64,000 bases of DNA from Escherichia phage vB_EcoM_LNA2: the sequence record MZ311865.1. One strand, written 5' to 3'. How positions within the stretch are numbered: position 1 is the stretch's first letter; each line of letters begins with the position of its first letter. Position numbers and translations under genes: made by a program. The notes under the pieces were generated by a model. It did not search any database, was not told where the DNA came from, and worked only from the letters and a program-made list of their open reading frames with translations. Shown here in pieces: positions 7,781 through 57,507 of the stretch.

Positions 7781-7799
7781 AGGGAGACGTTGTCTCCCT
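7781..7799. terminator. bidirectional hairpin terminator between gene 54 (+) and alt-side genes (-)
   Basis: AGGGAGAC-gtt-GTCTCCCT perfect stem followed by T-run, between convergent genes. Confidence 0.6.
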
Positions 7800-7807
7800 T
7801 TAGGGGT

Positions 7808-8101
7808 TTATTTACGGAATGAAAGGAATGCTGGTGCTCGGAATGGAGTATCATCTTTAGAGTATTTAACTAATACGACCATTGGTACCTCTGTTTCTAA
7901 ATGACCTGTCACTACACCGACAAAAATTTGATCAGTGTGCTCAGGGTCGCGAAAGTTTTTAAGAGGTTCCATAGCAATATGGAATGCACCTGGGAATACT
8001 CGATTCAATTCTTCAATCACAGCTTCGTTAAAAACATCATCTGCCGGGATAACATCTTCAACTACTAGTTCTTGACCATTAAAGCGAAGCATAGATTTCA
8101 T
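7808..8101 (-). CDS. hypothetical protein downstream of alt (alt.-1-like position)
   Basis: Track ORF 7808..8173 overlaps alt 3' end; internal ATG at 8099-8101 preceded by GAGGA gives 97 aa (MKSMLRFNG...). Confidence 0.45.
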   Translation of the reverse strand: MKSMLRFNGQELVVEDVIPADDVFNEAVIEELNRVFPGAFHIAMEPLKNFRDPEHTDQIFVGVVTGHLETEVPMVVLVKYSKDDTPFRAPAFLSFRK

Positions 8102-8130
8102 AACGTTTTCCTCATGTTGTTGATTGGATG

Positions 8131-8160
8131 ATAGTATCACACATCCATGTGTTTGTAAAC
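8131..8160 (-). promoter_or_regulatory. early-type promoter cassette (GTTTAC -35, TACTAT -10, hairpin around -10) inside alt 3' end
   Basis: Minus-strand reading GTTTAC-18nt-TACTAT with inverted repeat GGATG...CATCC flanking the -10, followed by GAGG RBS and ATG. Confidence 0.5.
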
Positions 8161-10247: not shown

Positions 10248-10287
10248 AGTGTTTTCCTTTTAGTAATAATTTATATTTATGCCAAAA

Positions 10288-10303
10288 AGAGCCCGAAGGC
10301 TCT
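10288..10303 (-). terminator. UUCG-tetraloop hairpin
   Basis: AGAGCC-cgaa-GGCTCT on plus strand (UUCG loop in minus-strand RNA), just upstream of alt RBS. Confidence 0.5.
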
Positions 10304-10491
10304 TAATCCACAATCGGGAGCAAAGTACGATAAACTTCAAAATTAGGGCCTTTTTCGTACTTATCAAAATTGTCCATAAAAATATTATAGGAATCGTTAT
10401 TAGGAAAATCTAATATAATCTGAGAGCAAGAGGTGGAAACATCTCCACCATCCTTCTTAGCTACAATAACTGTTTCTAAATAAGCTTTCAT
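10303..10491 (-). CDS. hypothetical small protein
   Basis: Track ORF 10303..10512; likely start at internal Met (MKAYLETVIV...) overlapping the ligase stop. Confidence 0.35.
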   Translation of the reverse strand: MKAYLETVIVAKKDGGDVSTSCSQIILDFPNNDSYNIFMDNFDKYEKGPNFEVYRTLLPIVD

Positions 10492-12259: not shown

Positions 12260-13075
12260 TTAACAATTTATAGACCAAGTCCATTTAGACGAATCTAAAG
12301 GAAAGTTTTGAATCGTCCACCATGGCCGCATATCGGTTGGTCCTGGAGTTCGCCAGGTATACGGATTCGACGGAGCGCCAATTTGATTAGGCCATGCGCC
12401 TGGACTTGTTGCACCAGATTCTTTAAGCAAATCTGCCAATCGTTTTAAAAGGTCTTCATGATCTGAATCTGAATTATGCTTGGGTGGAACCAAACGAGAT
12501 TCAATATCATCCCACGTGTGTACACGTTGTGCAGTACGAGGAATATCATCACGTTCACCACGAGCCAACCAATAAATCGGTACATTAAGAATTTCTGCTG
12601 CATGGTCACAGTGATGAGCTAAATCGTCAACGTAACAAATCACGTTATATTTTGTTTTAGCTAGTTCAAATAATTGTTCCTTTGACGAATCGTGACCACA
12701 CATCATTACTTCAGAAAAAGCGCCTGGGAACAAAGCATTCAAATTAAATTGTCTATTCAATCGAGCATCAATTGAATCACCTAGCGCCGTCACGGCTACA
12801 AAATTATAGTCTTCTTTTAGTTTATTGATAACTCGAAGAGCATCCGAATAAGGCGCTAAGTAACGAATAAAATCAGAGCGATTATATTTTTCTATTAATT
12901 GTTTACCGAGGTTATCATCGGTATTGAATAGTTTACCAGGAGAAATAAATTTTTCGTCCTGAATCATTTTTAAAATATGTTCTAATGGAAGATTATATTT
13001 TTGGGCAAAATAAGGAAGTCCAGATTGCCAGCTTAAACATACACCATCAATATCAGTCAAAATAGTAGGCTTCAT
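12260..13075 (-). CDS. HAD-superfamily hydrolase-like protein (30.2 position)
   Basis: 271 aa; N-terminal DIDGV motif (DxDG[TV] of haloacid dehalogenase-like phosphatases). Confidence 0.6.
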   Translation of the reverse strand: MKPTILTDIDGVCLSWQSGLPYFAQKYNLPLEHILKMIQDEKFISPGKLFNTDDNLGKQLIEKYNRSDFIRYLAPYSDALRVINKLKEDYNFVAVTALGDSIDARLNRQFNLNALFPGAFSEVMMCGHDSSKEQLFELAKTKYNVICYVDDLAHHCDHAAEILNVPIYWLARGERDDIPRTAQRVHTWDDIESRLVPPKHNSDSDHEDLLKRLADLLKESGATSPGAWPNQIGAPSNPYTWRTPGPTDMRPWWTIQNFPLDSSKWTWSINC

Positions 13076-14597: not shown

Positions 14598-14609
14598 AAT
14601 TTCCTCAGT

Positions 14610-14625
14610 GGGAGCCGAAGCTCCC
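14610..14625 (-). terminator. UUCG-tetraloop hairpin
   Basis: GGGAGC-cgaa-GCTCCC on plus strand. Confidence 0.55.
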
Positions 14626-14632
14626 AGTTAAA

Positions 14633-15512: not shown

Positions 15513-15550
15513 ATCTTTTTTTAAACTTTTTCTGCCCTAAACGCACAAAA

Positions 15551-15568
15551 GGGAGACCGAAGTCTCCC
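15551..15568 (-). terminator. UUCG-tetraloop hairpin
   Basis: GGGAGAC-cgaa-GTCTCCC on plus strand, immediately 3' of the small basic ORF. Confidence 0.55.
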
Positions 15569-15573
15569 TAAAT

Positions 15574-19013: not shown

Positions 19014-19040
19014 TTCTATTTCCTCATTTGTTGGTAGAGT

Positions 19041-19070
19041 TATAGTATCACAACTCCACCATGTTGTAAA
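19041..19070 (-). promoter_or_regulatory. early-type promoter cassette with hairpin around -10
   Basis: Minus-strand GTTTAC-18nt-TACTAT; inverted repeat GGTGGAGTT...AACTCTACC flanks the -10. Confidence 0.5.
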
Positions 19071-21139: not shown

Positions 21140-21167
21140 TTAGATTTCCTCAATTATCCATAGGAGC

Positions 21168-21197
21168 ATTATACTCTGCTCCTGAGAGTTTGTAAAC
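21168..21197 (-). promoter_or_regulatory. early-type promoter cassette with hairpin around -10
   Basis: Minus-strand GTTTAC-18nt-TATAAT; stem GGAGCA/TGCTCC encloses the -10. Confidence 0.5.
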
Positions 21198-24205: not shown

Positions 24206-24219
24206 GGGACCGAAGTCCC
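24206..24219 (-). terminator. UUCG-tetraloop hairpin between nrdB and denA
   Basis: GGGAC-cgaa-GTCCC on plus strand. Confidence 0.45.
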
Positions 24220-29991: not shown

Positions 29992-30024
29992 TTTATTCTC
30001 CTTCACTTTTGATTTGATAGGGCT

Positions 30025-30054
30025 ACTATAACATAACCCTATCTGATTGTACAC
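30025..30054 (-). promoter_or_regulatory. early-type promoter cassette with hairpin around -10
   Basis: Minus-strand GTGTAC-18nt-TATAGT; stem GATAGGG/CCCTATC encloses the -10. Confidence 0.5.
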
Positions 30055-30535: not shown

Positions 30536-30553
30536 GGGAGACCGAAGTCTCCC
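30536..30553 (-). terminator. UUCG-tetraloop terminator after gene 32
   Basis: GGGAGAC-cgaa-GTCTCCC on plus strand, a few nt 3' of the gene 32 stop. Confidence 0.6.
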
Positions 30554-36800: not shown

Positions 36801-37731
36801 TGTAACTCGTGCAACGATTATAGAATTCTCTGATGCTACCGGCTCTCATTTCTATTCTCAAAGAGATACGTCAAATAATGTGTTGTTCAACATTTCAGGT
36901 ACGATGCAATCAGTCAACGCTAGCGTTCGTGGTGTTCTGAACGTTACAGGTGTCTCAACGTTTAATAGTTCAGTTACAGCCAATGGTGAATTTATTGGTA
37001 AATCACCAAATGCTTTTAGAGCAATAAATGGAAATTACGGATTCTTTATTCGTAACGCTGGTAATGACACCTATTTTATGCTCACTGCAGCCGGCGACCA
37101 GACAGGTGGATTTAATGGATTACGCCCTTTAGCTATTAATAATCAATCCGGTCAGGTTACAATTGGTGAAAGTTTGATTATTGCTAAAGGTGCTACTATA
37201 AATTCAGGTGGTTTGACTGTTAACTCTAGAATTCGTTCTCAGGGTACTAAAGCATCTGATTTATATACCCGTGCGCCAACATCTGATACTGTAGGATTCT
37301 GGTCAATCGATATTAACGATTCAGCCACTTATAACCAGTTCCCAGGTTATTTTAAAATGGTTGAAAAAACTAATGAAGTGACTGGGCTTCCATACTTAGA
37401 ACGTGGCGAAGAAGTTAAATCTCCTGGTACATTGACTCAGTTTGGTAATACACTTGATTCACTTTACCAAGATTGGATTACTTATCCAACAACTCCGGAA
37501 GCACGTACCACTCGCTGGACACGTACATGGCAGAAAACTAAAAATTCTTGGTCAAGTTTTGTTCAAGTATTTGATGGGGGTAATCCTCCTCAACCTTCTG
37601 ATATCGGTGCTTTACCTTCTGATAATGCAACAATCGGAAACTTGACAATAAGGGATTTCTTAAGGATTGGTAATGTCCGCATTATTCCAGACCCTGTGAA
37701 TAAATCTGTTAAATTCGAGTGGATTGAATAA
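33853..37731 (+). CDS. 34: long tail fibre proximal subunit gp34
   Basis: 1292 aa (T4 gp34 1289 aa); internal repeated ..ATE.RRG.A.IATQAE.. motifs. Confidence 0.9.
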   Translation: MADIKRKFRAEDGLDAGGDKIVNVALADRTVGTDGVNVDFLVQENTVQVYDSTRGYNKGFVVLYDNRLYQAINDIVSPSGAFNLLQWRAVRTDAQWITVASGSYQLSSGESISVNTGAGNDMVFTLPNAPVDGDTIVLADIGGRTGAVKVQINASVQSILNFRGEQVRTVLMTRPRSQLVFVFSNRLWQMYITDYGKESITVTPATPYQAQANDFIVLRFTSAAPINITLPRNANNGDIISLVDLDKLNPLYHTIIKTFDDTTSIGEVGTHIVEGRTSSDAFFVFDAANSLWRIWEGDQKSRLRIIRTDSNIRPNEEVLIFGTNNATAETINLTLPTGILTGDTVKISMNYMRKGQTVKIKAAEGDTIASSVALLQFPKRSEYPPDAQWVSVTELEFNGTTSYVPVLELAYIEDTDSDTHYWVVQQNVPTVERVDAGTDATRARLGVIALATQAQANVDLENTPAKEVAITPETLANRTATEARRGIAKIATTAQVNQNSTASFVDDTIVTPKKLNERTATETRRGLAEIATQAETDAGLDDTTIITPKKLQARQGSETLSGIVKYVSTTSATPAATRGAAGTNVYNKDTTTLTISPKALDQYKATYAQQGAVILAVDSEVIAGQSQAGYSHAVVTPETLHKKTSTDGRIGLIEIATQAETNAGTDYTRAVTPKTLNDRKATEGLSGIAELATQVEFDTGTDDTRISTPLKIKTHFDSSDRTSVNSDSGLIEEGTLWNHYTLDISKANETQRGTLRVATQAESNAGTLDDVLITPKKLLGTKSTETSEGVIKVATQAETVTGTSANTAVSPKNLKWIVQSEPTWAATTAIRGFVKTSSGSITFVGNDTVGSTQPLESYEKNSYAISPYELNRVLANYLPLKAKAVDSNLLDGLDSSQFIRRDIAQTVNGSLTLTQQTNLSAPLVSSSTATFGGSVSANSTLTISNTGTTSSRFTFEKGPASGSNADSALYVRVWGNKYSGGSDVTRATIIEFSDATGSHFYSQRDTSNNVLFNISGTMQSVNASVRGVLNVTGVSTFNSSVTANGEFIGKSPNAFRAINGNYGFFIRNAGNDTYFMLTAAGDQTGGFNGLRPLAINNQSGQVTIGESLIIAKGATINSGGLTVNSRIRSQGTKASDLYTRAPTSDTVGFWSIDINDSATYNQFPGYFKMVEKTNEVTGLPYLERGEEVKSPGTLTQFGNTLDSLYQDWITYPTTPEARTTRWTRTWQKTKNSWSSFVQVFDGGNPPQPSDIGALPSDNATIGNLTIRDFLRIGNVRIIPDPVNKSVKFEWIE

Positions 37732-37739
37732 GAGGTATT

Positions 37740-38867
37740 ATGGAAAAATTTATGGCTAAGTTTGGACAAGGATACGTCCAAACGCCATTTTTATCGGAAA
37801 GCAATTCAGTACGATTTAAATTAAGCATAGCGGGCTCTTGCCCGCTATCAACATCTCCTGCTTATATTAAGTTCCAGGATAATCCACTTGGGTCCCAGGT
37901 TTTTTCCGTTGGATTAAACGTTCGTGTAATAAATCCTACAACAGGTGCAGTAGTTGAATCTAAGACATATAATTTCTCTACTGAAAACGACGCCACGTCA
38001 AGTGCATTTGTTACTTTCATGGACACATATGCTTCAAATTTTATATTTGCTCTTGTTACTAACGCTAAAACAAACTTTCCACCAGAAGTTCTTGCATGGC
38101 TTACTAAATCTGGGAGTTCTGCTATTCCATTAGCTCAACAAGTTTTAAATATAGTGGACATTTCTTATTCTGCATTTTATATTTCTGGTAAGAATGCTAT
38201 AGCACTAGAACATATTAAGTATAGTAATAAGAAAACTTCAACCGACTATAGTACACCACTTGATGTTGTGTACGACACGATCGATGATATTGGTGCTACC
38301 GGCTTCCCTAGTCGTACGTACGAATCGACAGACACATTTTTATCTGCTGTTGGAGGTACTAATAATGAAATTAAAAGGATGCCTACAACGTCCCTTATTA
38401 CACCTCTCGCTGGGTATAAATTGAAGCCTGGAGATTTCCTTTATATGAAATTCCAACTAATGGCCGATGCTGATTTGTTAGCACAAGGGACGACACGACT
38501 TTCTATTCGTTTCTTTAAATCTCCTTCTACTTCACCTATTTCATTTAATGATATAAACTTTGATGGGGCTGCAGGTGAATGGAAGATATATGAAGACTAC
38601 ATAGAAATTCCTGCTGGTGCTGACGGGTTCATGATTTATTGTTATCGTACAGCTCCAGTCGGGCAAGGTGGATTAAGAAACGTTATATTCACTGAAGTGT
38701 CATGTAATGGAAGCGTTTCAAAACCTGCTGAGTTTGGTATAAATGGTATTCGTGTAAATTATGTTTCAGAATCTTTAAGTGCTCCAGACATAATGACATT
38801 ACCTACTCAATCTTCAACTGATACTGGTAAGGTATTTGGACAAGAATTTAAAGAAGCATCAGAATAA
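37740..38867 (+). CDS. 35: long tail fibre hinge protein gp35
   Basis: 375 aa; synteny 34-35-36-37. Confidence 0.85.
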   Translation: MEKFMAKFGQGYVQTPFLSESNSVRFKLSIAGSCPLSTSPAYIKFQDNPLGSQVFSVGLNVRVINPTTGAVVESKTYNFSTENDATSSAFVTFMDTYASNFIFALVTNAKTNFPPEVLAWLTKSGSSAIPLAQQVLNIVDISYSAFYISGKNAIALEHIKYSNKKTSTDYSTPLDVVYDTIDDIGATGFPSRTYESTDTFLSAVGGTNNEIKRMPTTSLITPLAGYKLKPGDFLYMKFQLMADADLLAQGTTRLSIRFFKSPSTSPISFNDINFDGAAGEWKIYEDYIEIPAGADGFMIYCYRTAPVGQGGLRNVIFTEVSCNGSVSKPAEFGINGIRVNYVSESLSAPDIMTLPTQSSTDTGKVFGQEFKEASE

Positions 38868-38872
38868 ATTTA

Positions 38873-38890
38873 GGGAGACTTCGGTCTCCC
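38873..38890 (+). terminator. UUCG-tetraloop hairpin after gene 35
   Basis: GGGAGAC-ttcg-GTCTCCC followed by T-run. Confidence 0.6.
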
Positions 38891-38897
38891 ATTTTTG

Positions 38898-38905
38898 TAT
38901 AAATA
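38898..38905 (+). promoter_or_regulatory. late promoter TATAAATA for genes 36-37-38
   Basis: Exact TATAAATA about 25 nt upstream of the gene 36 start. Confidence 0.65.
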
Positions 38906-38929
38906 TGGTATACATATAAGGAGACAACT

Positions 38930-39595
38930 ATGGCCGATTTAAAAGCTGGTAGTACAACTGGCGGTGCCGTTATATGGCACCAAGGTAATTTCCCTTTAAT
39001 GCCAGCAGGTGATGACGTCCTGTATAAAACGTTTAAACTCTATTCAGAATACAATAAACCACAAGCGGCTGATAACGATTTTGTTTCTAAAGCTAATGGT
39101 GGTACTTTTGCGTCAAAGGTAACATTTAATGCTGGTGTTCAAGTACCATATGCTGTAAACAATACAAACCAAAGCGGTATTTATCCTGGCAATGGCGACG
39201 CAGCTACTTTTGCTACAGCAAATATTGATATTGTTTCATGGTATGGTATTGGTTTTAAATCATCACAGGGTTCAGCAGCCCGAACTGTGGTAATTAACAC
39301 ACGTAATGGTGATATTAGTACAAAAGGTGTTGTGTCGGCAGCTGGTCAAGTAAGAAGTGATGCGACTGCTCCTATAGCAGCGAATGACCTTACTAGAAAA
39401 GATTATGTTGATGGACGAATAAATATTATTACAGATAACGCAAATTCCCGTGTATTGCGTAAAGGCGATACCATGACTGGTACTTTAACAGCACCAAACT
39501 TTTTCTCACAGAATCCGGCGTCTGAGGCTAATCATGTTCCTCGTTTCGACCAGATTGTAATTAAAGATTCTGTTCAAGATTTCGGCTATTATTAA
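38930..39595 (+). CDS. 36: long tail fibre distal connector gp36
   Basis: 221 aa, T4 gp36 length. Confidence 0.85.
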
Positions 39596-39603
39596 GAGGA
39601 CTT

Positions 39604-42600
39604 ATGGCTACATTAAAACAGATACAATTTAAAAGAAGCAAAGTAGCAGGAGTTAATCCTACTGCAGCACAATTAGCCGAAGGCGAATTAGCGATAAACT
39701 TAAAAGATCGAACTCTTTTTACTAAAGATGACCTCGGTAATATTATTAGCCTAGGCTTTGCTAAGGGCGGGGATATTAACGGTAATGTAACTCAAAATGG
39801 AGATTATTTACAGAACGGTACATATAATCTCAATGGAAACCAGTTTGTTTATGCAGGAAAATATATTGAATTTTTACCTAAAACTGCAGGCAATGGTGCT
39901 TGGGCTAACCAACATCTGAATAAAGCTCCTATCTTTACAGATTTGAGTTCAACTACTTCTGTTTCAGAATATCATCCGCTGATTAAACAACGCTATAAAG
40001 ATGGAACTTTTTCTGTTGGTACGTTAGTAAACGAAGGAAGTTTTAAAATTCATTTTATGAATGAATCTGGTGATTCGAAATATTGGACGTTTCGCCGTGA
40101 CGGTGGATTTACTGTTGATGGTGGAGGTTTAGCAGTATCAGGAGGTAGTATAACTACATCTGGAAATATTGCAGCTCTCGGAAATATTACTTCGCCTCAG
40201 ATTAATACTAAAAATATTATTTTAGACACAAAAGCATTTGGACAATACGATTCGCAATCATTAGTTCAATATGTTTATCCTGGAACAGGCGAAGAAAATG
40301 GTGTAAACTATCTTCGTAAAGTTCGCGCTAAATCAGGCGGAACTATTTACCACGAAATCGCTTCAGCTCAAACCGGTAAGAATGATGAAATTTCTTGGTG
40401 GACCGGAAATACACTTACTACTAAATTAATGGGCCTTCGTAATGATGGCGCAATGGTATTACGTCGTTCGCTTGCTATTGGCACAATTACCACTGACGAA
40501 AATACTAATAACTATGGCTCTCCTACTCCAATGGGAGAAAGATATATTGCTTTGGGCGATGCTGCCACTGGTTTAAAATACATTAAGCAGGGTGTTTATG
40601 ATTTAGTAGGTAATTGGAATTCTGTTGCTTCTATTACTCCAGATAGTTTCCGTAGTACTCGTAAAGGTATATTTGGCCGTTCCGAGGACCAAGGTGGAAC
40701 ATGGATAATGCCGGGAACCAATGCTGCTCTCTTGTCTGTTCAAACACAAGCTGATAATAACAATGCTGGAGACGGACAAACTCATATCGGGTACAACGCT
40801 GGCGGTAAAATGAACCACTATTTCCGCGGTACTGGTCAGATGAATATCAATACCCAACAAGGTATGAAAATTAACCCGGGTATTTTGAAACTGGTAACTG
40901 GCGGTGAAAGTATTAGCTTTAATGCCGCAACTGGAAGTATTAATTCTACATTAGCTTTTCGTCTTAATAAAGGCATAATTATTGATGGACCTGATAATCA
41001 GGGATTCCAGTTTAACGCCCCGACGGCTGCAGATGGTACTAGAAGTATATACTGGAACAGTGGTACTCGCGCAGGTCAAAACAAAATCCCTGTTACAGTT
41101 AAAGTGTGGGGTAATTCATTTAACGCATCTGGCGATCGTTCTCGTGAAACGGTTTTTGAAGTAGCTGATGGGCAAGGTTACCATTTTTATTCTCAACGCG
41201 TAGCTCCTGCTCCTGGTTCTACCGTCGGACCTATTCAATTTCGAGTTAATGGTGGTTTATTAACTTCAGGTAGTATTGTTACTTCTGGTTCTATTACAAC
41301 TGAATCTTCTTTAAGTGTTAATAATGGCATGTCAGTAAACGGACAAGCTAAATTCGGTGGAACAGCTGATGCATTAAGAATTTGGAATGCTGAATACGGC
41401 GCAATTTTCCGTCGTTCAGAAGCATCATTATATATTATCCCGACTCCTAAAGATGCTGGAGAATCAGGCGGTATAAGTAATCTTAGACCATTGATAATAG
41501 AACTGAACACTGGCACAGTTAAAATGTCGCATGATGTTCATTTAGGAGATTCTGGATCTGGTACAGGATTATTACAAGTAAGTAATAGTCTTAAAACTAT
41601 TAAAATGATATGTCCAGTAACTATTACTGAACGTAATGCAGCGCTTACTCTAGATTCTCCTTCATCTTCTTCTGCTAATTATTTACAGGGTTCTAAAGCT
41701 GGAACTAGAACGTGGTATGTTGGTCTTGGTGGCTCTGGAAATGATTTATCACTTTATAGTCAATCTTATGGACACGGTCTTGTTATAAGCGATAATTTCG
41801 TGGCAATCAGTAAACCTCTTAAAGTTGGAAATGCTCAATTCGGTACTGATGGTAACATTACTGGTGGTTCTGGTAATTTTGCTAACTTGAATACCACAAT
41901 AAATAACCTTAAGACGGATATTGTGTCGAGTTACCCAATTGGTGCTCCGATTCCTTGGCCTACTGATACACCTCCTGAAGGTTATGCCATAATGGAAGGT
42001 CAAACATTTGATGCTGGCTTGTATCCTAAGTTAGCTGCGGTGTATCCTTCCGGCACTCTGCCTGATATGCGTGGTCAAACTATCAAGGGTAAACCATCTG
42101 GGCGTGCTGTATTAAGTACAGAAGCGGACGGCGTTAAGTCACATAGCCATAGTGCAAGTGCATCAAGCACAGATTTGGGTACTAAAACTACGTCAAGCTT
42201 TGATTATGGTACTAAGACGACAAGTAGCTTCGACTATGGTACTAAGACCAGTAATACCACTGGTAACCATAACCATACCGTGAGTGGTAATACTGGTTCC
42301 GCTGGTGCGCACCAACACGCGCGTTCAGGTCCTCAGGTACAAGGCGGCATACCCACTAGCGTATTCTATGATGGATACAATAGTGCTGGTCCAAACGGCA
42401 ACGCTAAATTCACTGCAACCGTGAGCGGTGCTACTGCATCGTCGAATATGGCCAAAACTTCTTCAGACGGCGCCCACACCCATAGTTGGTCAGGAACTAC
42501 TAGCGCTACTGGTAACCATGCTCATACTGTGGGTATTGGTGCTCATACCCATTCGGTAGGTATTGGTGCCCACTCTCATTCGGTAGCGATTGGTTCTCAT

Positions 42601-42687
42601 GGCCATACTATCACTGTAAATAGTACAGGTAATACAGAAAACACGGTTAAAAACGTTGCTTTTAACTATATCGTTCGTTTAGCATAA
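39604..42687 (+). CDS. 37: long tail fibre distal subunit gp37 (receptor-binding)
   Basis: 1027 aa (T4 gp37 1026 aa); C-terminal His-box repeats (GNHNH, GAHTHS, GAHSHS, GSHGH) typical of the T4-type fibre tip. Confidence 0.9.
42171..42260 (+). repeat. 30-nt tandem repeat x3 inside gene 37 ([10 protein letters not shown] / [10 protein letters not shown] / [10 protein letters not shown])
   Basis: Three consecutive imperfect 30-nt units read directly in the sequence. Confidence 0.7.
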
Positions 42688-42717
42688 GGAGAAGGGACTT
42701 CGGTCCCTTTTTATAAC
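42686..42717 (+). promoter_or_regulatory. gene 38 split ribosome-binding site with intervening UUCG hairpin
   Basis: SD AAGGAG at 42686-42691, hairpin GGGAC-ttcg-GTCCC, then ATG at 42718; the stem-loop shortens the effective SD-AUG spacing. Confidence 0.6.
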
Positions 42718-43269
42718 ATGAAACTCTATCATTATTATTTTGACACTAAAGAATTTTACAAAGAAGAAAATTATAAACCATTAAAAGGCGTAGGATTTCC
42801 GGCTCATTCGACACCAAAAAAACCTTTAGACCCTAAAGAAGGCTATGCTGTTATATTTGATGAACGCGAACAAGAATGGGTATATGTTGAAGACCATCGC
42901 GGAAAAACAGTATGGACTTATGATAAGCAAAAAATTGTTATTGACACCCCAGGTGCTCTTCAAAATGTTACTACAGAAGAACCTGGTGAATTTGACATTT
43001 GGACCGGTGACGGGTGGAAGGAAGATGAAGCATATAAACGCGTAGTTCAACGTGATAAGAAAATTCATGAACTCTATAAATTATTCAGTGTTTTAAGTTC
43101 TCTTATTGACGCAGAGGTTGCTAATAGAGAAGAAAAACGAAAATTTAAAGAGCTCAAAAAATTCTTTGCTCTTTTAGAAAAACATGAACATCTTGGCGGC
43201 GAATTCCCTAAATTCCCTGACCTTGAAAACAAATCTATTATCAAAGCGATTATAAATATCTTTAAGTAA
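42718..43269 (+). CDS. 38: tail fibre assembly chaperone gp38 (T4 type)
   Basis: 183 aa, T4 gp38 length; N-terminus MKLYHYYFDTKEFYKEENYKP matches T4-type gp38 as I recall. Confidence 0.85.
   Translation: MKLYHYYFDTKEFYKEENYKPLKGVGFPAHSTPKKPLDPKEGYAVIFDEREQEWVYVEDHRGKTVWTYDKQKIVIDTPGALQNVTTEEPGEFDIWTGDGWKEDEAYKRVVQRDKKIHELYKLFSVLSSLIDAEVANREEKRKFKELKKFFALLEKHEHLGGEFPKFPDLENKSIIKAIINIFK
43251..43258 (+). promoter_or_regulatory. late promoter TATAAATA for holin t (inside 3' end of gene 38)
   Basis: Exact TATAAATA about 20 nt upstream of the t start. Confidence 0.55.
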
Positions 43270-43278
43270 GGAGGTATT

Positions 43279-43938
43279 ATGGCAACACCAAAAGTGTCAT
43301 TTTCGCCTAGTGATATTCTATTTGGGTTGCTAGATCGTATTTTCAAAGATAACGCTACTGGAAAGGTTTTAATGTCCCGAGTAGCGGTAATTATTCTTTT
43401 GTTCCTAATGGCACTAATATGGTACAAAGGAAGTATTTTGCTGGATTATTATGTAAGAGCTAAGTATGATACTTATACTGAAATAATCCAAAAAGAACGA
43501 GCTTTACGTTTTGAATCTGCGGCTCTAGAACAACTGCAAATAGTTCATATCTCATCTGGTGCAGATTTTAGTGCTGTGTATTCTTTCAGACCTAAAAACT
43601 TAAATTATTTTGTCGACCTTATAGCTTATGAAGGCAAACTACCTAGCACAATTTCTGAAAAGTCCCTTGGTGGATTCCCGGTGGATAAAACGGCCAATGA
43701 ATATATAATTCATTTAAGTGGCCGTCATTTCTCGTCTAAATCAGAATTTGCATTTTTGCCTACAAAATCTAAGACTGCCGAACTTTCTTATATGTATAGT
43801 TGTCCATACTTTAATTTGGATAACATCTATGCTGGAACTGTGACGATGTATTGGTATAAGGGGAATAATATACTTGAGGAAGATCGCTTAGCGGCTATAT
43901 GCAACCAAGCGGTCCGAATACTAGGAAGGGCTAAATAA
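43279..43938 (+). CDS. t: holin T
   Basis: 219 aa (T4 T 218 aa); single N-terminal TM segment; C-terminal conserved block ...SCPYFNLDNIYAGT.TMYWY... Confidence 0.9.
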   Translation: MATPKVSFSPSDILFGLLDRIFKDNATGKVLMSRVAVIILLFLMALIWYKGSILLDYYVRAKYDTYTEIIQKERALRFESAALEQLQIVHISSGADFSAVYSFRPKNLNYFVDLIAYEGKLPSTISEKSLGGFPVDKTANEYIIHLSGRHFSSKSEFAFLPTKSKTAELSYMYSCPYFNLDNIYAGTVTMYWYKGNNILEEDRLAAICNQAVRILGRAK

Positions 43939-47093: not shown

Positions 47094-47118
47094 TGTTTTG
47101 TGAGAAAAATGCACAAAA

Positions 47119-47134
47119 GGGAGCCGAAGCTCCC
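47119..47134 (-). terminator. UUCG-tetraloop hairpin after gene 52
   Basis: GGGAGC-cgaa-GCTCCC on plus strand. Confidence 0.55.
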
Positions 47135-47210
47135 TAATCATGTTTGTCCAACCAATACAGCCAAATCACTAGTGCAGCTATTGCACCGAGAAATCCTAAG
47201 GCTAGGGCAC

Positions 47211-48536
47211 TCAAAGTGCCTCCAAGTCTTTAGTGTACTCTGTCACAACATCGGTAGACTTCCAATACTCATTTTCTTCTTTCTTAGCTTTAGCTTCTTC
47301 GGCTAGTTTACGTGCTTCATCGGAAGTGATATGGAAGATGTTAAGACCTACCAGTTTATCGACATGTTCTTTATACATTTCTATTTGTGCTAGCTCTTCA
47401 GTCAAAGCTTTACGAGTCTTGCCCTGAATCACAATTTCACCGTTGATAACTTTTTTGATGAAGTGTGCCTTAGCAAAAGCCAGTTTAAATGCTTTTTCAG
47501 ATTCAAGGATTTTGTTGTCAATACGTTTCTGAACGTAAGTCTTACGGACTTCAACAAAATCTTTGATTAAGTCCACTACGTTATCGTAGACAGCTAATTT
47601 ACCCTTTTCATTAATCACTGTGATGTTTTGTGAACGACGTTCGATGAGACTAAAATCTTTCATGATTTTTTCATGACGTAGCTCTTCATCATCAGGAAGC
47701 GAGTACTCTTTACGGAACTTCACCTTAAACCCAAAGCCGTGTTCACCACAATCATCTTCCCATGAGATTAGACCTTTGTCTTCCAACGGGTCAAGAACCT
47801 TACTCACATACGTTTCACGGTCGAATTTATATGGGATTTCAGTTATCTGCATTTGAGTGCGAGATGTGAACTTATACGTTCCGTGAATCTCATAACGCCC
47901 ATCAACTTCATGTACTTCACCACGGAATTCCGGGAATTCAACTTTTGGCTTAGTGACATTTTTACCTTGAAGAGCTTGTAATACAGCCTTTTTTACCGAT
48001 TTAAAACTATGAGGCAGAATATTTGTTGCGTAACCGGTTGCAATACCAGAGACGCCATTCAAAAGAACTGTCGGAATAATAGGAAGATAGAATTTTGGTG
48101 GAATGTGTTCTTTATCTTCATGAGCTGGAGCATATTCAGTATCTTTATATACGTTATAGAAATTTTTACTTACACGAGCAAAAATATAACGAGATGCTGC
48201 AGCTTTTTGGACTGTTCTAGAACCAAAGTTGCCTTGGCCATCTAACAGTGGATAGTTGTTGTTCCATGTGTTAGCCATCAATGCACCTGCATCTTGTGCA
48301 GAAGATTCACCATGGTGATAACCTAAATCTGCAACACCGCCTGCAATTGACGCAAGTTTATGAAATTTTTCTTTATTACCACGAGCCAAATCTAACGCAC
48401 GATGGACCACAAAACGTTGAACCGGCTTAAATCCATCAATCATGTTTGGGATTGCACGGTTTTCAACGGTGTACATCGCATATGCTAAGGCTTCGTTATC
48501 AATAATACTTTTTAGATTACGAGAATTCAATTGCAT
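47211..48536 (-). CDS. 52: DNA topoisomerase II medium subunit gp52
   Basis: 441 aa (T4 gp52 442 aa); type II topoisomerase A-subunit-like. Confidence 0.9.
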   Translation of the reverse strand: MQLNSRNLKSIIDNEALAYAMYTVENRAIPNMIDGFKPVQRFVVHRALDLARGNKEKFHKLASIAGGVADLGYHHGESSAQDAGALMANTWNNNYPLLDGQGNFGSRTVQKAAASRYIFARVSKNFYNVYKDTEYAPAHEDKEHIPPKFYLPIIPTVLLNGVSGIATGYATNILPHSFKSVKKAVLQALQGKNVTKPKVEFPEFRGEVHEVDGRYEIHGTYKFTSRTQMQITEIPYKFDRETYVSKVLDPLEDKGLISWEDDCGEHGFGFKVKFRKEYSLPDDEELRHEKIMKDFSLIERRSQNITVINEKGKLAVYDNVVDLIKDFVEVRKTYVQKRIDNKILESEKAFKLAFAKAHFIKKVINGEIVIQGKTRKALTEELAQIEMYKEHVDKLVGLNIFHITSDEARKLAEEAKAKKEENEYWKSTDVVTEYTKDLEAL

Positions 48537-48540
48537 ATTT

Positions 48541-48681
48541 TCACCATATTAATGAACGAATATCCATTATAACATCTGAAATGAAAAGCACTACTTGGAT
48601 TAGTCCAAACATCACACCGTAGTACAGAACCGTAAGCAACAACAAGAGCCCGAAGGCTCCTGCTAAAATTTTCTTAATCAT
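48541..48681 (-). CDS. small hydrophobic membrane peptide, 46 aa (missed by ORF track; T4 ac position)
   Basis: Hand translation: MIKKILAGAFGLLLLLTVLYYGVMFGLIQVVLFISDVIMDIRSLIW; TAATG overlap with the upstream peptide ORF. Confidence 0.45.
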   Translation of the reverse strand: MIKKILAGAFGLLLLLTVLYYGVMFGLIQVVLFISDVIMDIRSLIW

Positions 48682-49326: not shown

Positions 49327-49370
49327 GCTAATTTCCTCAATTGATTAATGTTTTTGTAATCCATGAGAGC

Positions 49371-49400
49371 ATTATACTCTGCTCTCAAGAGTTTGTACAA
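49371..49400 (-). promoter_or_regulatory. early-type promoter cassette for ndd with hairpin around -10
   Basis: Minus-strand TTGTAC-18nt-TATAAT; stem GAGAGC/GCTCTC encloses the -10. Confidence 0.5.
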
Positions 49401-49603: not shown

Positions 49604-49631
49604 TTTGTGTTCCTCATGTTTCAGTAGGACT

Positions 49632-49661
49632 ACTATACCATAATCCTACCTTGTTGTAAAC
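49632..49661 (-). promoter_or_regulatory. early-type promoter cassette
   Basis: Minus-strand GTTTAC-18nt-TATAGT with GTAGGA/TCCTAC stem. Confidence 0.5.
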
Positions 49662-50117: not shown

Positions 50118-50143
50118 GATGTTATCCTCTTTTAGATAGGACT

Positions 50144-50173
50144 ACTATATCATAGTCCTACTTAGTTGTAAAC
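50144..50173 (-). promoter_or_regulatory. early-type promoter cassette with hairpin around -10
   Basis: Minus-strand GTTTAC-18nt-TATAGT; stem TAGGACT/AGTCCTA encloses the -10. Confidence 0.5.
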
Positions 50174-50986: not shown

Positions 50987-51002
50987 GGGGACCGAAGTCC
51001 CC
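50987..51002 (-). terminator. UUCG-tetraloop hairpin after rIIB
   Basis: GGGGAC-cgaa-GTCCCC on plus strand. Confidence 0.55.
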
Positions 51003-51007
51003 AATTA

Positions 51008-54178: not shown

Positions 54179-54190
54179 ATTTTTCTCTCA

Positions 54191-54391: not shown

Positions 54392-54415
54392 AATATTCTC
54401 TTCAGTAGATTCCTA

Positions 54416-54470: not shown

Positions 54471-54483
54471 GGCTATTCAGGAT

Positions 54484-55584: not shown

Positions 55585-55610
55585 AATTAAGCCTTATTAA
55601 AATTAAAATG

Positions 55611-55628
55611 AAGCTCCCGAAGGAGCTT
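55611..55628 (-). terminator. UUCG-tetraloop hairpin after gene 39
   Basis: AAGCTCC-cgaa-GGAGCTT on plus strand, overlapping the gene 39 stop. Confidence 0.5.
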
Positions 55629-57444
55629 AGGACATCCATTCTTTACGAAGTTCTGAATCATCACCCATCAACATTTCAAAGAGTTCTTTCCAATTTTCAG
55701 GAAGTTTAACTACGTCGTACACAGGGTTCTGAATCATTTCACGATATTCTGACTTTTCAAGGGAGCCTAATCCCTTGATGTATCGAATACTGTGCTTAGG
55801 CAGTGTATCTTTAACTTCTTCGTACTCAGCCACAGTATAAAACCATTTTTGAGTTTTGCCAATTTGTGCAATAATTACAGGCGTTTTAACAAAGCGAATA
55901 CGTCCTTGTTCAAACAATTCAGGCCAATTACTAAAGAAAGCAAGCAAAGCCGGATAGATACTTCCAAGACCGTCATGATCGGCATCGGTCATAATTGCAA
56001 TATTACGATAGTTCGTATTCTCTGCCTTTTCACCAAGAATAAGACCCGTGATAGCACAGATATCAAAGAGCTCTTTGTTCTTCATCATATCAGCATATGA
56101 CATACCCCAGCTATTCATCACCTTACCACGTAATGGGAATCCACCGTGTAGTTCACGGTCACGAACATCAATGAGATAACCAATTGCCGAATCACCTTCT
56201 GTTAAGAACAATGTCGTATCTGCATCTTTACCGCATTGGTTAGCTTTAATATGCTTATGAACCTTAGCTTTAGTTGCCTTTTTAGCTGCTTTAGTTTCTG
56301 CAGCCTTTTCTGCTGCCAATTTACGAGCTAATGCTGCTTCAACAATAGGCATAATCAAGGCTTCGTTTTTAAGAAGTGCCTGAGCAATTTTCTTAGCATC
56401 TAATTGGATATGATTACGAATATCACCATACGTTGACGTTAAACGTTCTTTAGTCTGAGAATCAAAACGCATGTTGCTCATGTCTCTAATAAACATCAAC
56501 ATTGTGAGACATTCTTTAACACGAGCTTTAGTGACTTCAATACCCTTATATTTCTTTTTAATACCAGGCAAAAGATGTTCGCAGATATCATCCATTACAC
56601 ATTCAACATGATGACCACCATTTTTAGTATGGATGTTATTCACGTAAGTTAAATGACGGAAGCCATCTGGTGATGTTGTGAATGCCATAGAGACTCTATC
56701 GTTTTCTTGAATGATGTTATCTTCGCCAAATTGTTTAGCAAATCGTTTAAAATTACCATCAACCTTTTTACCATTAAATGTGAACTTGATATCAGGATAA
56801 ACGACTGCCAATGTTTGAAGTCGGTCTAAAGTAATATCTAAATAAATTTGAGATAAATTATGCTCTTCAAATGAAGAGAAATCAGGAGTGAAGATTACTT
56901 TAGTGCCTTTACCTTTAGATTTCTTAGAAGACCATGATTTGTTTTCCATTCCGTTTGAACAGTTAACAGTGATTTCATTTTCGCCATCTGACGTGATGCC
57001 TGTAAACAACGTAGAGAAGATATTAGTTAAACTACTCCCGACGCCGTTCATACCACCAGTCTTGCGTTCAGAGTCATCACCAAAGTTACCACCAGCCTTT
57101 GGAATAGTCCAGGCTGCTACAGGCCCAGGAATTTGTTCACCTGTTTGGTCGGTAACTAAACCTTGAGGAATACCACGTCCGTTATCTTCCACTGAGACTT
57201 GATTATTTTTAATTTGCACATCGATTTTATTTGCAAACTTAAATGATGTACGAATAGCTTCATCAACCGAGTTGTCAATAATCTCATCGATTAATTTAAC
57301 CAGACCAGGAACATATTCAACTTGTTGATATTTGCCAAACAAAAAACGCTCATGTGCTTCTTTAGCAGAAGAACCAATATACATACCACTACGTTTCTTA
57401 ATATGTTCTACATCTGACAATACCTTAATTTCATTTTTAATCAT
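55627..57444 (-). CDS. 39: DNA topoisomerase II large subunit gp39 (unsplit 39+60 form)
   Basis: 605-aa single ORF with GHKL ATPase/Toprim-type features; no separate gene 60 and no inserted homing endonuclease. Confidence 0.9.
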   Translation of the reverse strand: MIKNEIKVLSDVEHIKKRSGMYIGSSAKEAHERFLFGKYQQVEYVPGLVKLIDEIIDNSVDEAIRTSFKFANKIDVQIKNNQVSVEDNGRGIPQGLVTDQTGEQIPGPVAAWTIPKAGGNFGDDSERKTGGMNGVGSSLTNIFSTLFTGITSDGENEITVNCSNGMENKSWSSKKSKGKGTKVIFTPDFSSFEEHNLSQIYLDITLDRLQTLAVVYPDIKFTFNGKKVDGNFKRFAKQFGEDNIIQENDRVSMAFTTSPDGFRHLTYVNNIHTKNGGHHVECVMDDICEHLLPGIKKKYKGIEVTKARVKECLTMLMFIRDMSNMRFDSQTKERLTSTYGDIRNHIQLDAKKIAQALLKNEALIMPIVEAALARKLAAEKAAETKAAKKATKAKVHKHIKANQCGKDADTTLFLTEGDSAIGYLIDVRDRELHGGFPLRGKVMNSWGMSYADMMKNKELFDICAITGLILGEKAENTNYRNIAIMTDADHDGLGSIYPALLAFFSNWPELFEQGRIRFVKTPVIIAQIGKTQKWFYTVAEYEEVKDTLPKHSIRYIKGLGSLEKSEYREMIQNPVYDVVKLPENWKELFEMLMGDDSELRKEWMS

Positions 57445-57495
57445 GTTGTCTCCTCGTTATGAAGGTATTCTATCATCCGAAATCTAAAGCAAAAA

Positions 57496-57507
57496 GGGCC
57501 GAAGCCC
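57496..57507 (-). terminator. short UUCG-tetraloop hairpin upstream of gene 39
   Basis: GGGC-cgaa-GCCC on plus strand. Confidence 0.4.

Follow-up and report, generated by a model that had tools for sequence, protein, structure and literature searches.

Short GC-rich hairpins capped by the loop UUCG recur along the stretch of DNA considered here (the window, 64,000 nucleotides from Escherichia phage vB_EcoM_LNA2), and they raise the question of whether they work as RNA or as DNA, and what they do at the places where they stand. The window phage is a T4-like (RB69/JS09-type) coliphage belonging to Mosigvirus, the T-even group and Tevenvirinae; it has the T4 gene order and shares about 95–97% identity with Mosigvirus genomes (~96% with Escherichia phage JS09). 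The recurrent hairpins are those of the T4 type, C(UUCG)G hairpins of extra stability that lie between genes; that is to say, the pattern is real and already known. The novelty is low: the phenomenon is that of Tuerk et al. 1988 (PNAS 85:1364), reportedly the first description of C(UUCG)G hairpins in T4. The hairpins of T4 and those of the window are alike in the CUUCGG hexamer with complementary arms, in mostly intercistronic placement, in mRNA sense and in phage group: the Tuerk-type pattern (X)2-8 CUUCGG (Y)2-8 is found at 12 sites, 11 of them between genes, while site 7781 with its GUU loop does not fit it. In the passages of PMC4371310 and PMC8948821 that cite Tuerk 1988, CUUCGG hairpins are described as found in T4 mRNA and abundant between the genes of T4-type phages.

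There is no essential difference between T4 and the window phage in this respect, although individual sites vary by lineage. UUCG hairpins are common to both at several junctions, namely alt.1/alt, 30.9/30.8, the gene 38 initiation region and 39.1/39. The gene 32 terminator and the nrdB/denA hairpin carry UUCG in the window phage, whereas T4 has CUAGA and GCAA, respectively. Conversely, some T4 copies are absent from the window phage; the gene 60 bypass hairpin is one of them, the window phage having a fusion of genes 60 and 39.

Number and Stem Variety of the Hairpins

The first-pass annotation had listed at least 12 near-identical GC-clamped hairpins with a GGGAGNC consensus. When GGGAGNCTTCGGNCTCCC was searched for with up to 2 mismatches, only 3 sites matched, and the exact search was therefore replaced by a structural scan. 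The scan found 12 perfect-stem C(UUCG)G hairpins in the window, which are 11 of the 12 listed sites and a copy in a small ORF; the remaining listed site, 7781, has a GUU loop. The hairpins are not near-identical: the consensus fits only 3 copies exactly, and the remaining stems differ: GGGAGC, GAGCC and GGGAC occur twice each, and GGGGAC, GCUCC and GGGC once each. The stems are short and GC-clamped, 4–8 bp in length with a GC core of 4–7 bp; at the 12 C(UUCG)G sites, the perfect stems span 5–8 bp.

Set against 200 dinucleotide shuffles, stems of at least 7 bp number 8 where 0.015 are expected, and with dinucleotide shuffles for stems of at least 6 bp the figures are 11 and 0.14; across the shuffle comparisons, 8–13 hairpins are observed and 0.015–0.65 expected. 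The motif count that had been proposed as a check is therefore far above chance. In T4-type hairpins, unusual thermodynamic stability and a block to reverse transcriptase are further hallmarks; in the window, the predicted energies of the GC cores, with the special-loop bonus of the nearest-neighbour model included, run from −6.3 to −12.0 kcal/mol, and the minimum-free-energy fold of the surroundings includes each hairpin. The fold z-scores are modest (−1.2 to −4.5 in 54–60 nt windows) and are not used as the main statistic, because short GC-clamped sequences often fold again after a dinucleotide shuffle. An Rfam search returned no family at gathering thresholds.

Two further candidates were set aside. 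A thirteenth TTCG hairpin at 12284–12299, lying inside gene 30.2 with an A-U closing pair and an AT-rich stem, is probably a chance occurrence. The idea that the hairpins are copies of a longer mobile repeat was rejected because their flanks share only a stop codon and AT-rich context (about 8 nt).

Strand Orientation and Conservation

UUCG stands on the strand of the neighbouring genes, that is, in mRNA sense, in 12 of 12 window hairpins, and among the intergenic hairpins of 94 T-even-type loci 178 are sense and 3 antisense, by strand statistics based on crude ORF calls. The earlier observation that every loop is UUCG in the mRNA is hence strongly supported. A loop census of related phages gives the same picture: among 249 non-redundant GC-rich intergenic tetraloop hairpins, 165 are sense C(UUCG)G and 3 are the inverse C(CGAA)G. 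At orthologous junctions, the hairpin is kept and its stem altered by paired substitutions, while the UUCG loop stays constant. Taken together, the paired substitutions, the retention of UUCG and the 165 to 3 sense bias indicate that selection acts on the RNA.

The covariation can be followed at two junctions. At gene 35/36 (22 distinct orthologs), 98% of the cells are paired and 44 cells are changed on both sides; at nrdB/denA (16 distinct sequences), 98% are paired and 19 cells are changed on both sides, with four of the six pairs doubly changed; the percentages paired are inflated, as the best hairpin was chosen for each ortholog. None of 500 shuffles reached the covariation values of either junction. 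Where other loops occur at orthologous sites, they are other stable ones (UACG, UCCG, GAAA, GCAA), which suggests that stability is favoured over a sequence-specific partner. Moreover, the CGAA loop of JS09 at the ortholog of 47118 implies that UUCG is not strictly needed at that site.

The best explanation, held with high confidence, is that the hairpins are RNA elements and not DNA elements: short GC stems with C(UUCG)G caps placed in T-even mRNAs in several contexts. With such a cap, even a very short stem would fold quickly and hold together in a genome that is rich in AT and leaves only tiny gaps between genes; the one building block serves in several contexts. For the window hairpins, the termination, stabilisation and translational effects discussed below are read from the sequence.

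Hairpins Resembling Terminators

Eight of the sites form a class with a stop codon, a hairpin and a U-rich tail each:

10287..10304, minus strand: C(UUCG)G hairpin AAGAGCC-UUCG-GGCUCUU, starting on the alt.1 stop codon, followed by UUUUUGG and late-promoter-like CATAAATA upstream of alt
15550..15569, minus strand: C(UUCG)G hairpin AGGGAGAC-UUCG-GUCUCCCU, after the 30.9 stop, followed by UUUUGUGCGUUU
30536..30553, minus strand: the terminator hairpin of gene 32, GGGAGAC-UUCG-GUCUCCC, and after it UUUUGAGU; an early-type promoter lies some 35 nt farther downstream
38873..38890, plus strand: hairpin GGGAGAC-UUCG-GUCUCCC, behind the stop of gene 35, with AUUUUUG and then the gene 36 late promoter TATAAATA downstream
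47118..47135, minus strand: hairpin AGGGAGC-UUCG-GCUCCCU, on the stop of the motA.1-like small ORF after gene 52
50987..51002, minus strand: hairpin GGGGAC-UUCG-GUCCCC, after the rIIB stop, followed by UUUUUUCUUU and the Shine-Dalgarno and AUG of the next ORF
55611..55628, minus strand: hairpin AAGCUCC-UUCG-GGAGCUU, overlapping the stop of the gene 60+39 topoisomerase subunit, with the tail UUCAUUUUAAUUUU
57494..57509, minus strand: hairpin AAGGGC-UUCG-GCCCUU, on the ORF005c stop, followed by UUUUUGCUUUA (MotA-box-like TGCTT), 12 nt and TAGAAT

These hairpins are conserved to different extents. The one at 10287 is kept in T4 and 10 other distinct sequences with differing stems, each followed by (C/T)ATAAATA. 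At 15550, where z reaches −4.5, T4 has GAGGACUCC-UUCG-GGAGUCCUU at the equivalent junction. T-even genera, and some distant T4-like contigs as well, conserve the 30536 hairpin directly behind the gene 32 stop. The ortholog of 47118 in JS09 has the same stem with the inverted loop (CGAA), and other lineages have different stems. For the 50987 junction there are 18 distinct orthologs, of which 14 combine a UUCG loop with varied stems. The hairpin at 55611 is common to JS09 only, other lineages having non-UUCG hairpins or none there. Upstream of gene 39, T4 has AAAGGCC-UUCG-GGCCUUU.

As for the U-rich tails, a generic terminator scan was set aside as too strict and noisy (15 found, 12.6 expected); most UUCG sites escaped it, as their U-runs begin within the extended stem, and U counts were instead taken after the GC core. 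At least five U in the following 8 nt are found after 11 of the 12 window hairpins, the exception being 14609 with one, and in 122 of 208 cases at related loci, whose overall T content is 31%. At least four uninterrupted U directly follow the hairpins at 10287, 15550, 30536, 42692, 47118, 50987 and 57494, and at 38873 they follow after a single A; several tracts are interrupted (UUUUGUGC, UUCAUUUU).

Promoter-like motifs come after 10287, 15550, 30536, 38873, 47118 and 57494, while the next cistron comes directly after 14609, 24206, 42692, 50987 and 55611. Downstream of 15550, 30536 and 47118 stands GTTTAC, 17 nt, TA(C/G/T)(T/A)AT at a distance of 25–40 nt; in the case of 15550, the second box reads TACTAT, and at 47118 UUUUGUGCAUUUUU comes next after the hairpin, and then the early-type promoter that precedes motA. 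Downstream of 57494 stands TGCTTTA, 12 nt, TAGAAT, and the TGCTT and TAGAAT elements look like the gene 39 middle promoter. The downstream promoters would accordingly be of the late type at 10287 and 38873 and of the early type at 15550, 30536 and 47118, with a MotA-type middle promoter at 57494. The position of six hairpins immediately upstream of the next promoter suggests insulation between transcription units.

The first-pass annotation had suggested that the hairpins are terminators or RNA-stability signals at operon boundaries. This agrees with the layout of most sites, where a stop, a GC stem and at least five U in 8 nt come together (six of them with a promoter motif), but not for 42692 and 24206, which have a split-Shine-Dalgarno layout, for 14609 with no U-run, for 48646 in coding sequence, or for 7781, which is not UUCG. 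In the literature, T4 intergenic stem-loops of this kind are termed terminators (PMC1702504, PMC3972237), and RB49 stem-loops adjoining early promoters have been reported to terminate as well as rrnB T1 (PMC2839356). Like the intrinsic (Rho-independent) terminators of E. coli and its phages, the window hairpins combine a stem rich in GC with a small stable loop and a 3′ tail rich in U, and six of them stand between a stop codon and a promoter-like motif; for intrinsic terminators, UUCG and GAAA loops have been noted where PMC3972237 cites d'Aubenton Carafa 1990. Unlike them, the window hairpins have very short stems (GC core 4–7 bp), and several of their U-tracts are interrupted. At least three copies are so placed that complete termination would shut off the gene that comes next in their operon, which makes partial attenuation or another role more likely for these operon-internal copies. 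A literature search for Term-seq or long-read 3′-end mapping of T4-type phages returned no usable data. On the features described, the sites at 10287, 15550, 30536, 38873, 47118, 50987 and 57494, and more weakly 55611, are probably factor-independent terminators or attenuators that would also act as barriers to 3′ exonucleases.

Hairpins at Translation Starts

Three further hairpins lie close to the ribosome-binding site of the next gene:

24206..24219, minus strand: C(UUCG)G hairpin GGGAC-UUCG-GUCCC, between UAAGGAC (nrdB stop and Shine-Dalgarno) and ACUUUAUU-AUG of denA
42692..42709, plus strand: hairpin AAGGGAC-UUCG-GUCCCUU, with UAAGGAG before it and UUUAUAAC-AUG of gene 38 after it
14609..14626, minus strand: C(UUCG)G hairpin UGGGAGC-UUCG-GCUCCCA, between 30.7 and 30.6, with no U-run and with the GAGG Shine-Dalgarno of 30.6 3 nt later

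The hairpin at 42692 is the known gene 38 split Shine-Dalgarno region, arranged as UAAGGAG, an 18-nt hairpin, 8 nt and AUG. The gene 38 stems differ among the window, T4 (AGAGGGGC-UUCG-GCCCUUCU) and one related locus (L012). It has been reported that this hairpin between Shine-Dalgarno and AUG enhances translation, the spacing going from 22 to 5 nt (PMC3014915 section 29), and that breakage of the stem lowers the translation of T4 genes 38 and 25 (PMC3014915).

The denA site is built in a similar way, as UAAGGAC, a 14-nt hairpin, 8 nt and AUG, and at both denA and gene 38 the segment between hairpin and AUG holds no purine-rich stretch. It resembles the split Shine-Dalgarno of T4 genes 38 and 25 in the order UAAGGA(G), hairpin, 6–9 U-rich nt and AUG with no other Shine-Dalgarno nearby, and differs from them in that the Shine-Dalgarno of denA overlaps the nrdB stop codon. 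The layout is conserved across genera: the 16 distinct nrdB/denA orthologs have covarying stems, most of them carry a UUCG loop and those of the T4 group GCAA, and at two loci (L034 and L035) the arrangement is replaced by an overlapping stop/start AUGA. A literature search found no description of a denA split Shine-Dalgarno. At both gene 38 and denA, the AUG lies 22–26 nt from the Shine-Dalgarno, and folding would bring it within about 8 nt and so could enable initiation. U-rich tails follow the hairpins of gene 38 and denA too, so that this class and that of the terminator-like sites overlap.

The junction at 14609 is conserved in relatives with UUCG, UUCA (T4), GAAA and UACG loops, always directly 5′ of UGAGGAAA..AUG; here, the hairpin may hold the 30.6 Shine-Dalgarno single-stranded or cap a processed end.

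Gene 52.1 and the Junction of Genes 54 and alt.-3

Two hairpins stand apart from the others, one within an ORF and one between convergent genes:

48640..48665 (core 48646–48659), minus strand: hairpin built on the core GAGCC-UUCG-GGCUC, up to 11 bp when extended, at nt 17–42 of a 46-codon ORF
7779..7801, no strand assigned: related non-UUCG hairpin AAAGGGAGAC-GUU-GUCUCCCUUU, between convergent genes 54 and alt.-3

The first of them confirms the further copy that had been placed inside a small ORF at about 48641–48662; the core occupies 48646–48659 and can be extended to 48640–48665. The ORF is homologous to T4 gene 52.1, and at least five lineages keep a GC-rich hairpin at the equivalent place in it, with unrelated sequences. 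The hairpin is kept in the 5′ part of gene 52.1 and could attenuate transcription before gene 52.

The hairpin at 7781 has the stem GGGAGAC/GUCUCCC and a loop that is GUU on one strand and AAC on the other. It is flanked by an A-run and, on the opposite side, by a U-run, as would be expected of a bidirectional terminator, and its orthologs carry many loops (GAAA, GUGA/UCAC, AAAA, CUAG and others).

Alternative Explanations

The alternative that survives best is that the hairpins serve mainly in RNA protection or processing and not in termination, by blocking 3′ exonucleases, shielding GGAG from RegB or providing stable ends after cleavage; this is possible, with clearly less than an even chance. 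T4 early transcription units read through many junctions, which counts for it, as do the 14609 hairpin with no U-run and the several tails that are poor as terminators. GGAG is present in 6–7 of 13 stems, and GGAG within stable UUCG-capped T4 intergenic structures is left uncut by RegB (PMC1702504). A pure stability element, however, needs neither the U-rich tails that follow 11 of 12 hairpins nor the promoters that follow six, and the gene 32 site is a classical strong terminator position. Nor do the roles exclude each other, since the 3′ end released at an intrinsic terminator is also stabilised by its hairpin.

It is improbable that the hairpins are primarily DNA palindromes, that is, recombination or module-shuffling linkers of PeSL type, cruciforms or protein-binding sites in which the RNA hairpin is incidental. 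With PeSL/PmSL (Arbiol 2010, PMC2839356; Comeau 2014, PMC4122927), the sites at 15550, 30536, 47118 and 57494 share a stem-loop followed by a promoter in a short intergenic region. The early-type promoter of PeSLs is TTTACW, 17 nt, TAYWAT, the alternative being a MotA-box promoter (PMC2839356, PMC4122927), and 15550, 30536 and 47118, as units of stem-loop and early promoter, are like the composite motifs proposed for shuffling (PMC2839356, PMC4122927). The stem-loop of published PeSLs usually occupies the gap that separates the −35 from the −10 box, or it covers the −10 box, and these motifs are associated with indels in hyperplastic regions (PMC2839356, PMC4122927), whereas the window UUCG hairpins lie upstream of the −35 box, outside the PeSL placement. 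Stems do recur within the genome (GGGAGAC 3 times, and again at site 7782), identical-stem pairs make up 10.1% within genomes and 5.1% between genomes, and loop inversions at orthologous palindromes point to DNA events. Yet a palindrome gives no reason for UUCG to stand on the transcribed strand, as it does by 165 to 3 and 178 to 3, and where both strands are transcribed, at gene 54/alt.-3, the loop is unconstrained. Several hairpins stand in conserved core operons outside plastic regions, and orthologous sites retain structure and not sequence, which leaves little homology for recombination.

Other inverted repeats in the window, those at 49623–49650 and 50136–50161 among them, match the PeSL layout better, and such repeats do overlap −10 boxes.

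It is very unlikely that an RNA-binding protein of phage or host, such as a translational repressor or an antiterminator, recognises the UUCG loop. The loop is strikingly conserved over variable stems, and T4-type phages encode the RNA-binding regulators RegA, gp32, gp43 and RegB (PMC3014915). Against this, orthologous sites swap UUCG for GCAA, GAAA, UACG, UCCG or pentaloops, the contexts are heterogeneous (terminators, ribosome-binding sites, a coding region), and the UUCG tetraloop has been described as being without protein or RNA contacts (PMC4371310). Chance or base composition, for which only the AT-rich A(UUCG)U hairpin at 12284–12299 within coding sequence speaks, has a negligible probability, being refuted by the shuffles (0.015–0.65 against 8–13), by the 178 to 3 strand bias and the 165 to 3 loop census, with all window hairpins sense and positions conserved across phage genera.

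Significance for T4-Like Phages

The finding is mainly one of classification: the phenomenon behind the discovery of the UUCG tetraloop has been rediscovered from raw sequence. Practical value is modest, and the denA and gene 52.1 hairpins are small possible additions to the known phenomenon. It is proposed only tentatively, and as a joint reading, that the nrdB/denA hairpin may be a third split Shine-Dalgarno enhancer besides genes 38 and 25, that the gene 52.1 hairpin may be a kept intra-ORF attenuator or stabiliser before topoisomerase gene 52, and that loop inversions and stem reuse may reflect ongoing DNA-level exchange among hairpins. The comparative tables offer a clean natural example of covarying stems under a fixed loop, and in T4-like genomes the hairpins are useful annotation markers for the ends of transcription units and for unusual ribosome-binding sites.

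Gene Layout of the Window

When a 10-kb piece of the window was searched, it showed 94–97% identity to Escherichia/Shigella phages of the genus Mosigvirus (RB69/JS09 group, Tevenvirinae), and the annotation of phage JS09 transfers to the window gene by gene. The GC content of the window is 35–40%, and its genes are arranged as follows:

Minus strand: genes 25 and 26
1524-7775, plus strand: baseplate hub genes 51, 27, 28, 29, 48 and 54
After the hub genes, minus strand: long block of alt, gene 30 ... gene 32, 59, 33, dsbA and rnh
33853-43938, plus strand: tail-fibre genes 34–38 and t
Minus strand: second block of asiA, motA, 52, ac, ndd, denB, rIIB, rIIA, fused 60+39, dexA and dda

Occurrence, Sequence and Orientation of the Hairpins

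A structural scan of the window for a TTCG loop on a perfect stem of at least 5 bp gave 13 hairpins, 12 of which are closed by a C-G pair. TTCG/CGAA hairpins were also counted in 200 dinucleotide-preserving shuffles of the window. With a minimum stem of 5 bp the shuffles gave an expectation of 0.65 and the window has 13; with a minimum of 6 bp the two figures are 0.14 and 11, and with 7 bp 0.015 and 8. The minimum-free-energy fold of the 54–60-nt context includes the hairpin in all 12 C(UUCG)G cases. The pattern is real and highly non-random, and the core observation of the first-pass annotation stands, including a copy placed in a small peptide ORF (48646-48659). The AT-rich A(UUCG)U hairpin at 12284-12299, within gene 30.2, looks like a chance match.

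C(UUCG)G hairpins of the window, grouped by context
Class (a), stop codon, hairpin and U-rich tail:
10287-10304, minus strand: alt.1 stop codon overlaps the stem; tail UUUUUGG, then CATAAATA, a late-promoter-like box before alt
15550-15569, minus strand: after 30.9; tail UUUUGUGCGUUU, then GTTTAC, 17 nt, TACTAT
30536-30553, minus strand: after gene 32; tail UUUUGAGU, then GTTTAC, 17 nt, TAGTAT
38873-38890, plus strand: after gene 35; tail AUUUUUG, then the gene 36 late promoter TATAAATA
47118-47135, minus strand: stop codon of a 26-codon motA.1-like ORF after gene 52; tail UUUUGUGCAUUUUU, then GTTTAC, 17 nt, TATTAT before motA
50987-51002, minus strand: after rIIB; tail UUUUUUCUUU, next Shine-Dalgarno sequence directly behind
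55611-55628, minus strand: overlaps the topoisomerase gene stop codon; tail UUCAUUUU
57494-57509, minus strand: stop codon of ORF005c; tail UUUUUGCUUUA, 12 nt, TAGAAT, a MotA-box middle-promoter layout before gene 39
Class (b), between Shine-Dalgarno sequence and AUG:
24206-24219, minus strand: UAAGGAC (UAA is the nrdB stop codon), hairpin, ACUUUAUU, AUG of denA
42692-42709, plus strand: UAAGGAG, hairpin, UUUAUAAC, AUG of gene 38
Class (c), before a Shine-Dalgarno sequence:
14609-14626, minus strand: no U-run; GAGG of gene 30.6 lies 3 nt downstream
Class (d), within a gene:
48646-48659 (48640-48665), minus strand: nt 17-42 of a 46-codon ORF (48539-48679), the T4 gene 52.1 homolog

The hairpins had been described as near-identical copies of GGGAGNC-UUCG, which is overstated. 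The consensus GGGAGNCTTCGGNCTCCC with up to two mismatches is matched in the window only at 15551, 30536 and 38873, and the GC cores of the 12 stems are GGGAGAC (three), GGGAGC, GGGAC and GAGCC (two each), GGGGAC, GCUCC and GGGC. One of the sites is wrong: 7781, at the convergent genes 54 and alt.-3, reads AAAGGGAGAC-GUU-GUCUCCCUUU and has a UUCG loop on neither strand, though its stem is shared with three UUCG copies. The 7-bp stem GGGAGAC/GUCUCCC stands at four junctions (7782-7798, 15551-15568, 30536-30553 and 38873-38890). The phage endoribonuclease RegB targets GGAG, and this sequence lies within the stems at 14610, 15551, 30536, 38873, 47119, 55613 and 7782. At gathering thresholds, no Rfam family covers any of these hairpins.

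The claim that the loop is always in RNA sense holds: UUCG is on the strand of the neighbouring genes in 12/12 C(UUCG)G hairpins. For related phages, 94 T-even-type loci were pooled and duplicates removed, about 90% of the sequence being coding; intergenic CUUCGG hairpins were 178 sense and 3 antisense, and coding ones 23 sense and 10 antisense. The intergenic regions between co-directional genes hold 249 GC-rich tetraloop hairpins. Of these, 165 are C(UUCG)G and 3 have the inverse form C(CGAA)G; no other loop exceeds 7.

Hairpins Following Stop Codons

The first-pass annotation read the hairpins as apparent terminators or RNA-stability/processing signals at operon boundaries. This is broadly right but too uniform: it suits the anatomy of class (a), and not the Shine-Dalgarno bridges, 14609 or the within-gene 48646. 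From their anatomy and the T4 literature, class (a) hairpins are most likely intrinsic terminators or attenuators and 3′-end protectors, which would insulate neighbouring transcription units. In the related loci, 122 of 208 unique hairpins carry 5 or more U among the 8 nt that follow the GC core, and 194 are preceded by a stop triplet at a distance of up to 10 nt. It has been reported that T4 intergenic stem-loops "like transcription terminators" contain GGAG, often carry a UUCG tetraloop and are RegB-resistant (PMC1702504), and UUCG and GAAA loops have been linked to Rho-independent terminators (PMC3972237).

A 26-codon hydrophobic ORF (47136-47213, minus strand) ends on the 47118 hairpin; it starts with TTG, encodes the peptide SALALGFLGAIAALVIWLYWLDKHD, overlaps the stop codon of gene 52 and is unannotated in JS09. 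Its position is that of motA.1 in T4, and the relatives' ORF there starts with ATG.

The hairpin-plus-promoter units of the window resemble the PeSL/PmSL composite motifs of promoter and stem-loop in T4-like phages (PMC2839356, PMC4122927). However, the PeSL/PmSL stem-loop usually overlaps the promoter, and in the window this layout fits different inverted repeats, which form a second family:

19032-19061, minus strand: second-family inverted repeat
21162-21183, minus strand: the same
30016-30043, minus strand: the same
49364-49387, minus strand: the same
49623-49650, minus strand: the same
50136-50161, minus strand: the same
58797-58816, minus strand: the same

These lie across the spacer and −10 box in promoters of early type (GTTTAC, a spacer of about 17 nt, TAnnAT), a layout like that of the PeSL promoter-terminator cassettes of RB49/phi1 (PMC2839356), and their hairpins would form only in read-through transcripts from upstream.

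Conservation among Related Phages

Viral contigs supplied 137 related loci (the surroundings of genes 32, 52 and 30), from which orthologous junctions were extracted. Almost all T-even-type genomes carry a hairpin and U-run at the stop codon of gene 32; stems include GAAGGAGCC, GGGAGAC, AGGGGACC, AAGGCUACUC, AAGGAACC and AAGGACUC, and the loop is mostly UUCG, elsewhere UCCG, UACG, UUUG or a pentaloop. A hairpin with varying stems is likewise kept at nrdB|denA, 35|36, alt.1|alt and 30.7|30.6, downstream of rIIB, upstream of gene 39 and downstream of 52. Each ortholog is represented by its best hairpin, a choice that by itself raises the pairing at 35|36 (98.1% of cells in 22 distinct sequences, 44 changed on both sides) and nrdB|denA (97.9% in 16 sequences, 19 changed on both sides). 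These values were reached by 0/500 shuffles, and sliding the partner column lowered pairing to 65–71%. The informative point of the pair counts is that the hairpin stays in the same place and its stems differ.

The whole JS09 genome has about 24 CUUCGG hairpins, nearly all sense and intergenic, half of them in the region equivalent to the window. In T4, C(UUCG)G hairpins stand at alt.1|alt, 30.9|30.8, 39.1|39 and the initiation region of gene 38, on stems quite unlike those of the window; further T4 copies include the gene 60 bypass hairpin. Marine T4-like contigs have 0 or 1 CUUCGG hairpin, in several of them a sole copy right after gene 32. Transcription enters the 54|alt.-3 hairpin on both strands, and its loop is unconstrained (GAAA, CGAA, GUGA or UCAC, CUAA, AAAA, CUAG and others).

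Selection on the RNA and Possible Events on the DNA

A symmetric palindrome with an asymmetric loop, the way this loop depends on the direction of transcription and the covariation of the stems show that selection acts on the RNA hairpin. Orthologous sites swap UUCG for other especially stable loops, which argues that what counts is a compact, fast-folding and very stable hairpin rather than a motif recognised by a partner.

Loop inversions occur among close relatives: UUCG at 47118-47135 stands against CGAA on the same stem in JS09 (locus L001, 37295-37312), members of the T4 group have either CUCG or CGAG downstream of gene 52 (L097 vs L088/L005), and at 54|alt.-3 the loop is GUGA or its inverse UCAC (L136 vs L134). 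This suggests loop-flipping mutations at these palindromes, e.g., by template switching. Identical-stem pairs account for 10.1% within genomes versus 5.1% between genomes, and this reuse could be lineage-specific preference or gene conversion; other genomes prefer other stems, such as GGGCC five times. Inversions and reuse hint at DNA-level events on palindromes, and the verdict for the RNA is unchanged.

Hairpins at Ribosome-Binding Sites and within Genes

The UUCG hairpin phenomenon is already known. Tuerk et al. in 1988 reportedly described C(UUCG)G hairpins of T4 mRNA, introducing the UUCG tetraloop. The discovery in T4 mRNA has been recounted by Hall (PMC4371310). Site 42692 is the textbook split Shine-Dalgarno case of gene 38, in which the hairpin shortens the spacing from 22 to 5 nt (PMC3014915). 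From anatomy and the T4 literature, class (b) hairpins most likely bridge the gap between Shine-Dalgarno sequence and AUG.

In the coding sequence of gene 40, a C(UUCG)G hairpin is common to JS09 (L145, 148735-148754; UCCCCUUC-UUCG-GAAGGGGA) and T4 (L006, 22329-22348; UCCCCCUC-UUCG-GAGGGGGA), with a paired stem change. Five or more lineages keep a GC-rich hairpin at the same position of the gene 52.1 ORF although its sequences are unrelated, among them GGGCUA-UUCAU-UAGCCC (T4), GGGCUAC-UCG-GUGGCCC, GCGGUC-CUAGU-GGCCGC and UGGCCAUCA-UUA-UGAUGGCCG. Each is stabler than 97–100% of the shuffled versions of its region, and a UUCG cap is confined to the vB_EcoM_LNA2 lineage. Together with the U-rich stretch behind it, the hairpin occupies nt 17-52 of the ORF, and RNA and peptide have both diverged (L005, L092, L096, L098, L099).

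At the denA junction, the nrdB stop codon with Shine-Dalgarno sequence (UAAGGAG) is followed by a stable tetraloop hairpin, 6–9 U-rich nt and the AUG. This layout is kept in 25 loci, with orthologs across T-even genera in L004 and L008-L036; most of them have a UUCG loop, the T4 group has GCAA, and L034 and L035 have an overlapping stop/start AUGA instead. No description of it was found in the literature searched. The denA hairpin would join those of genes 38 and 25 as the third of the split Shine-Dalgarno class. Two possible new elements are the denA split Shine-Dalgarno layout and the hairpin kept inside gene 52.1.
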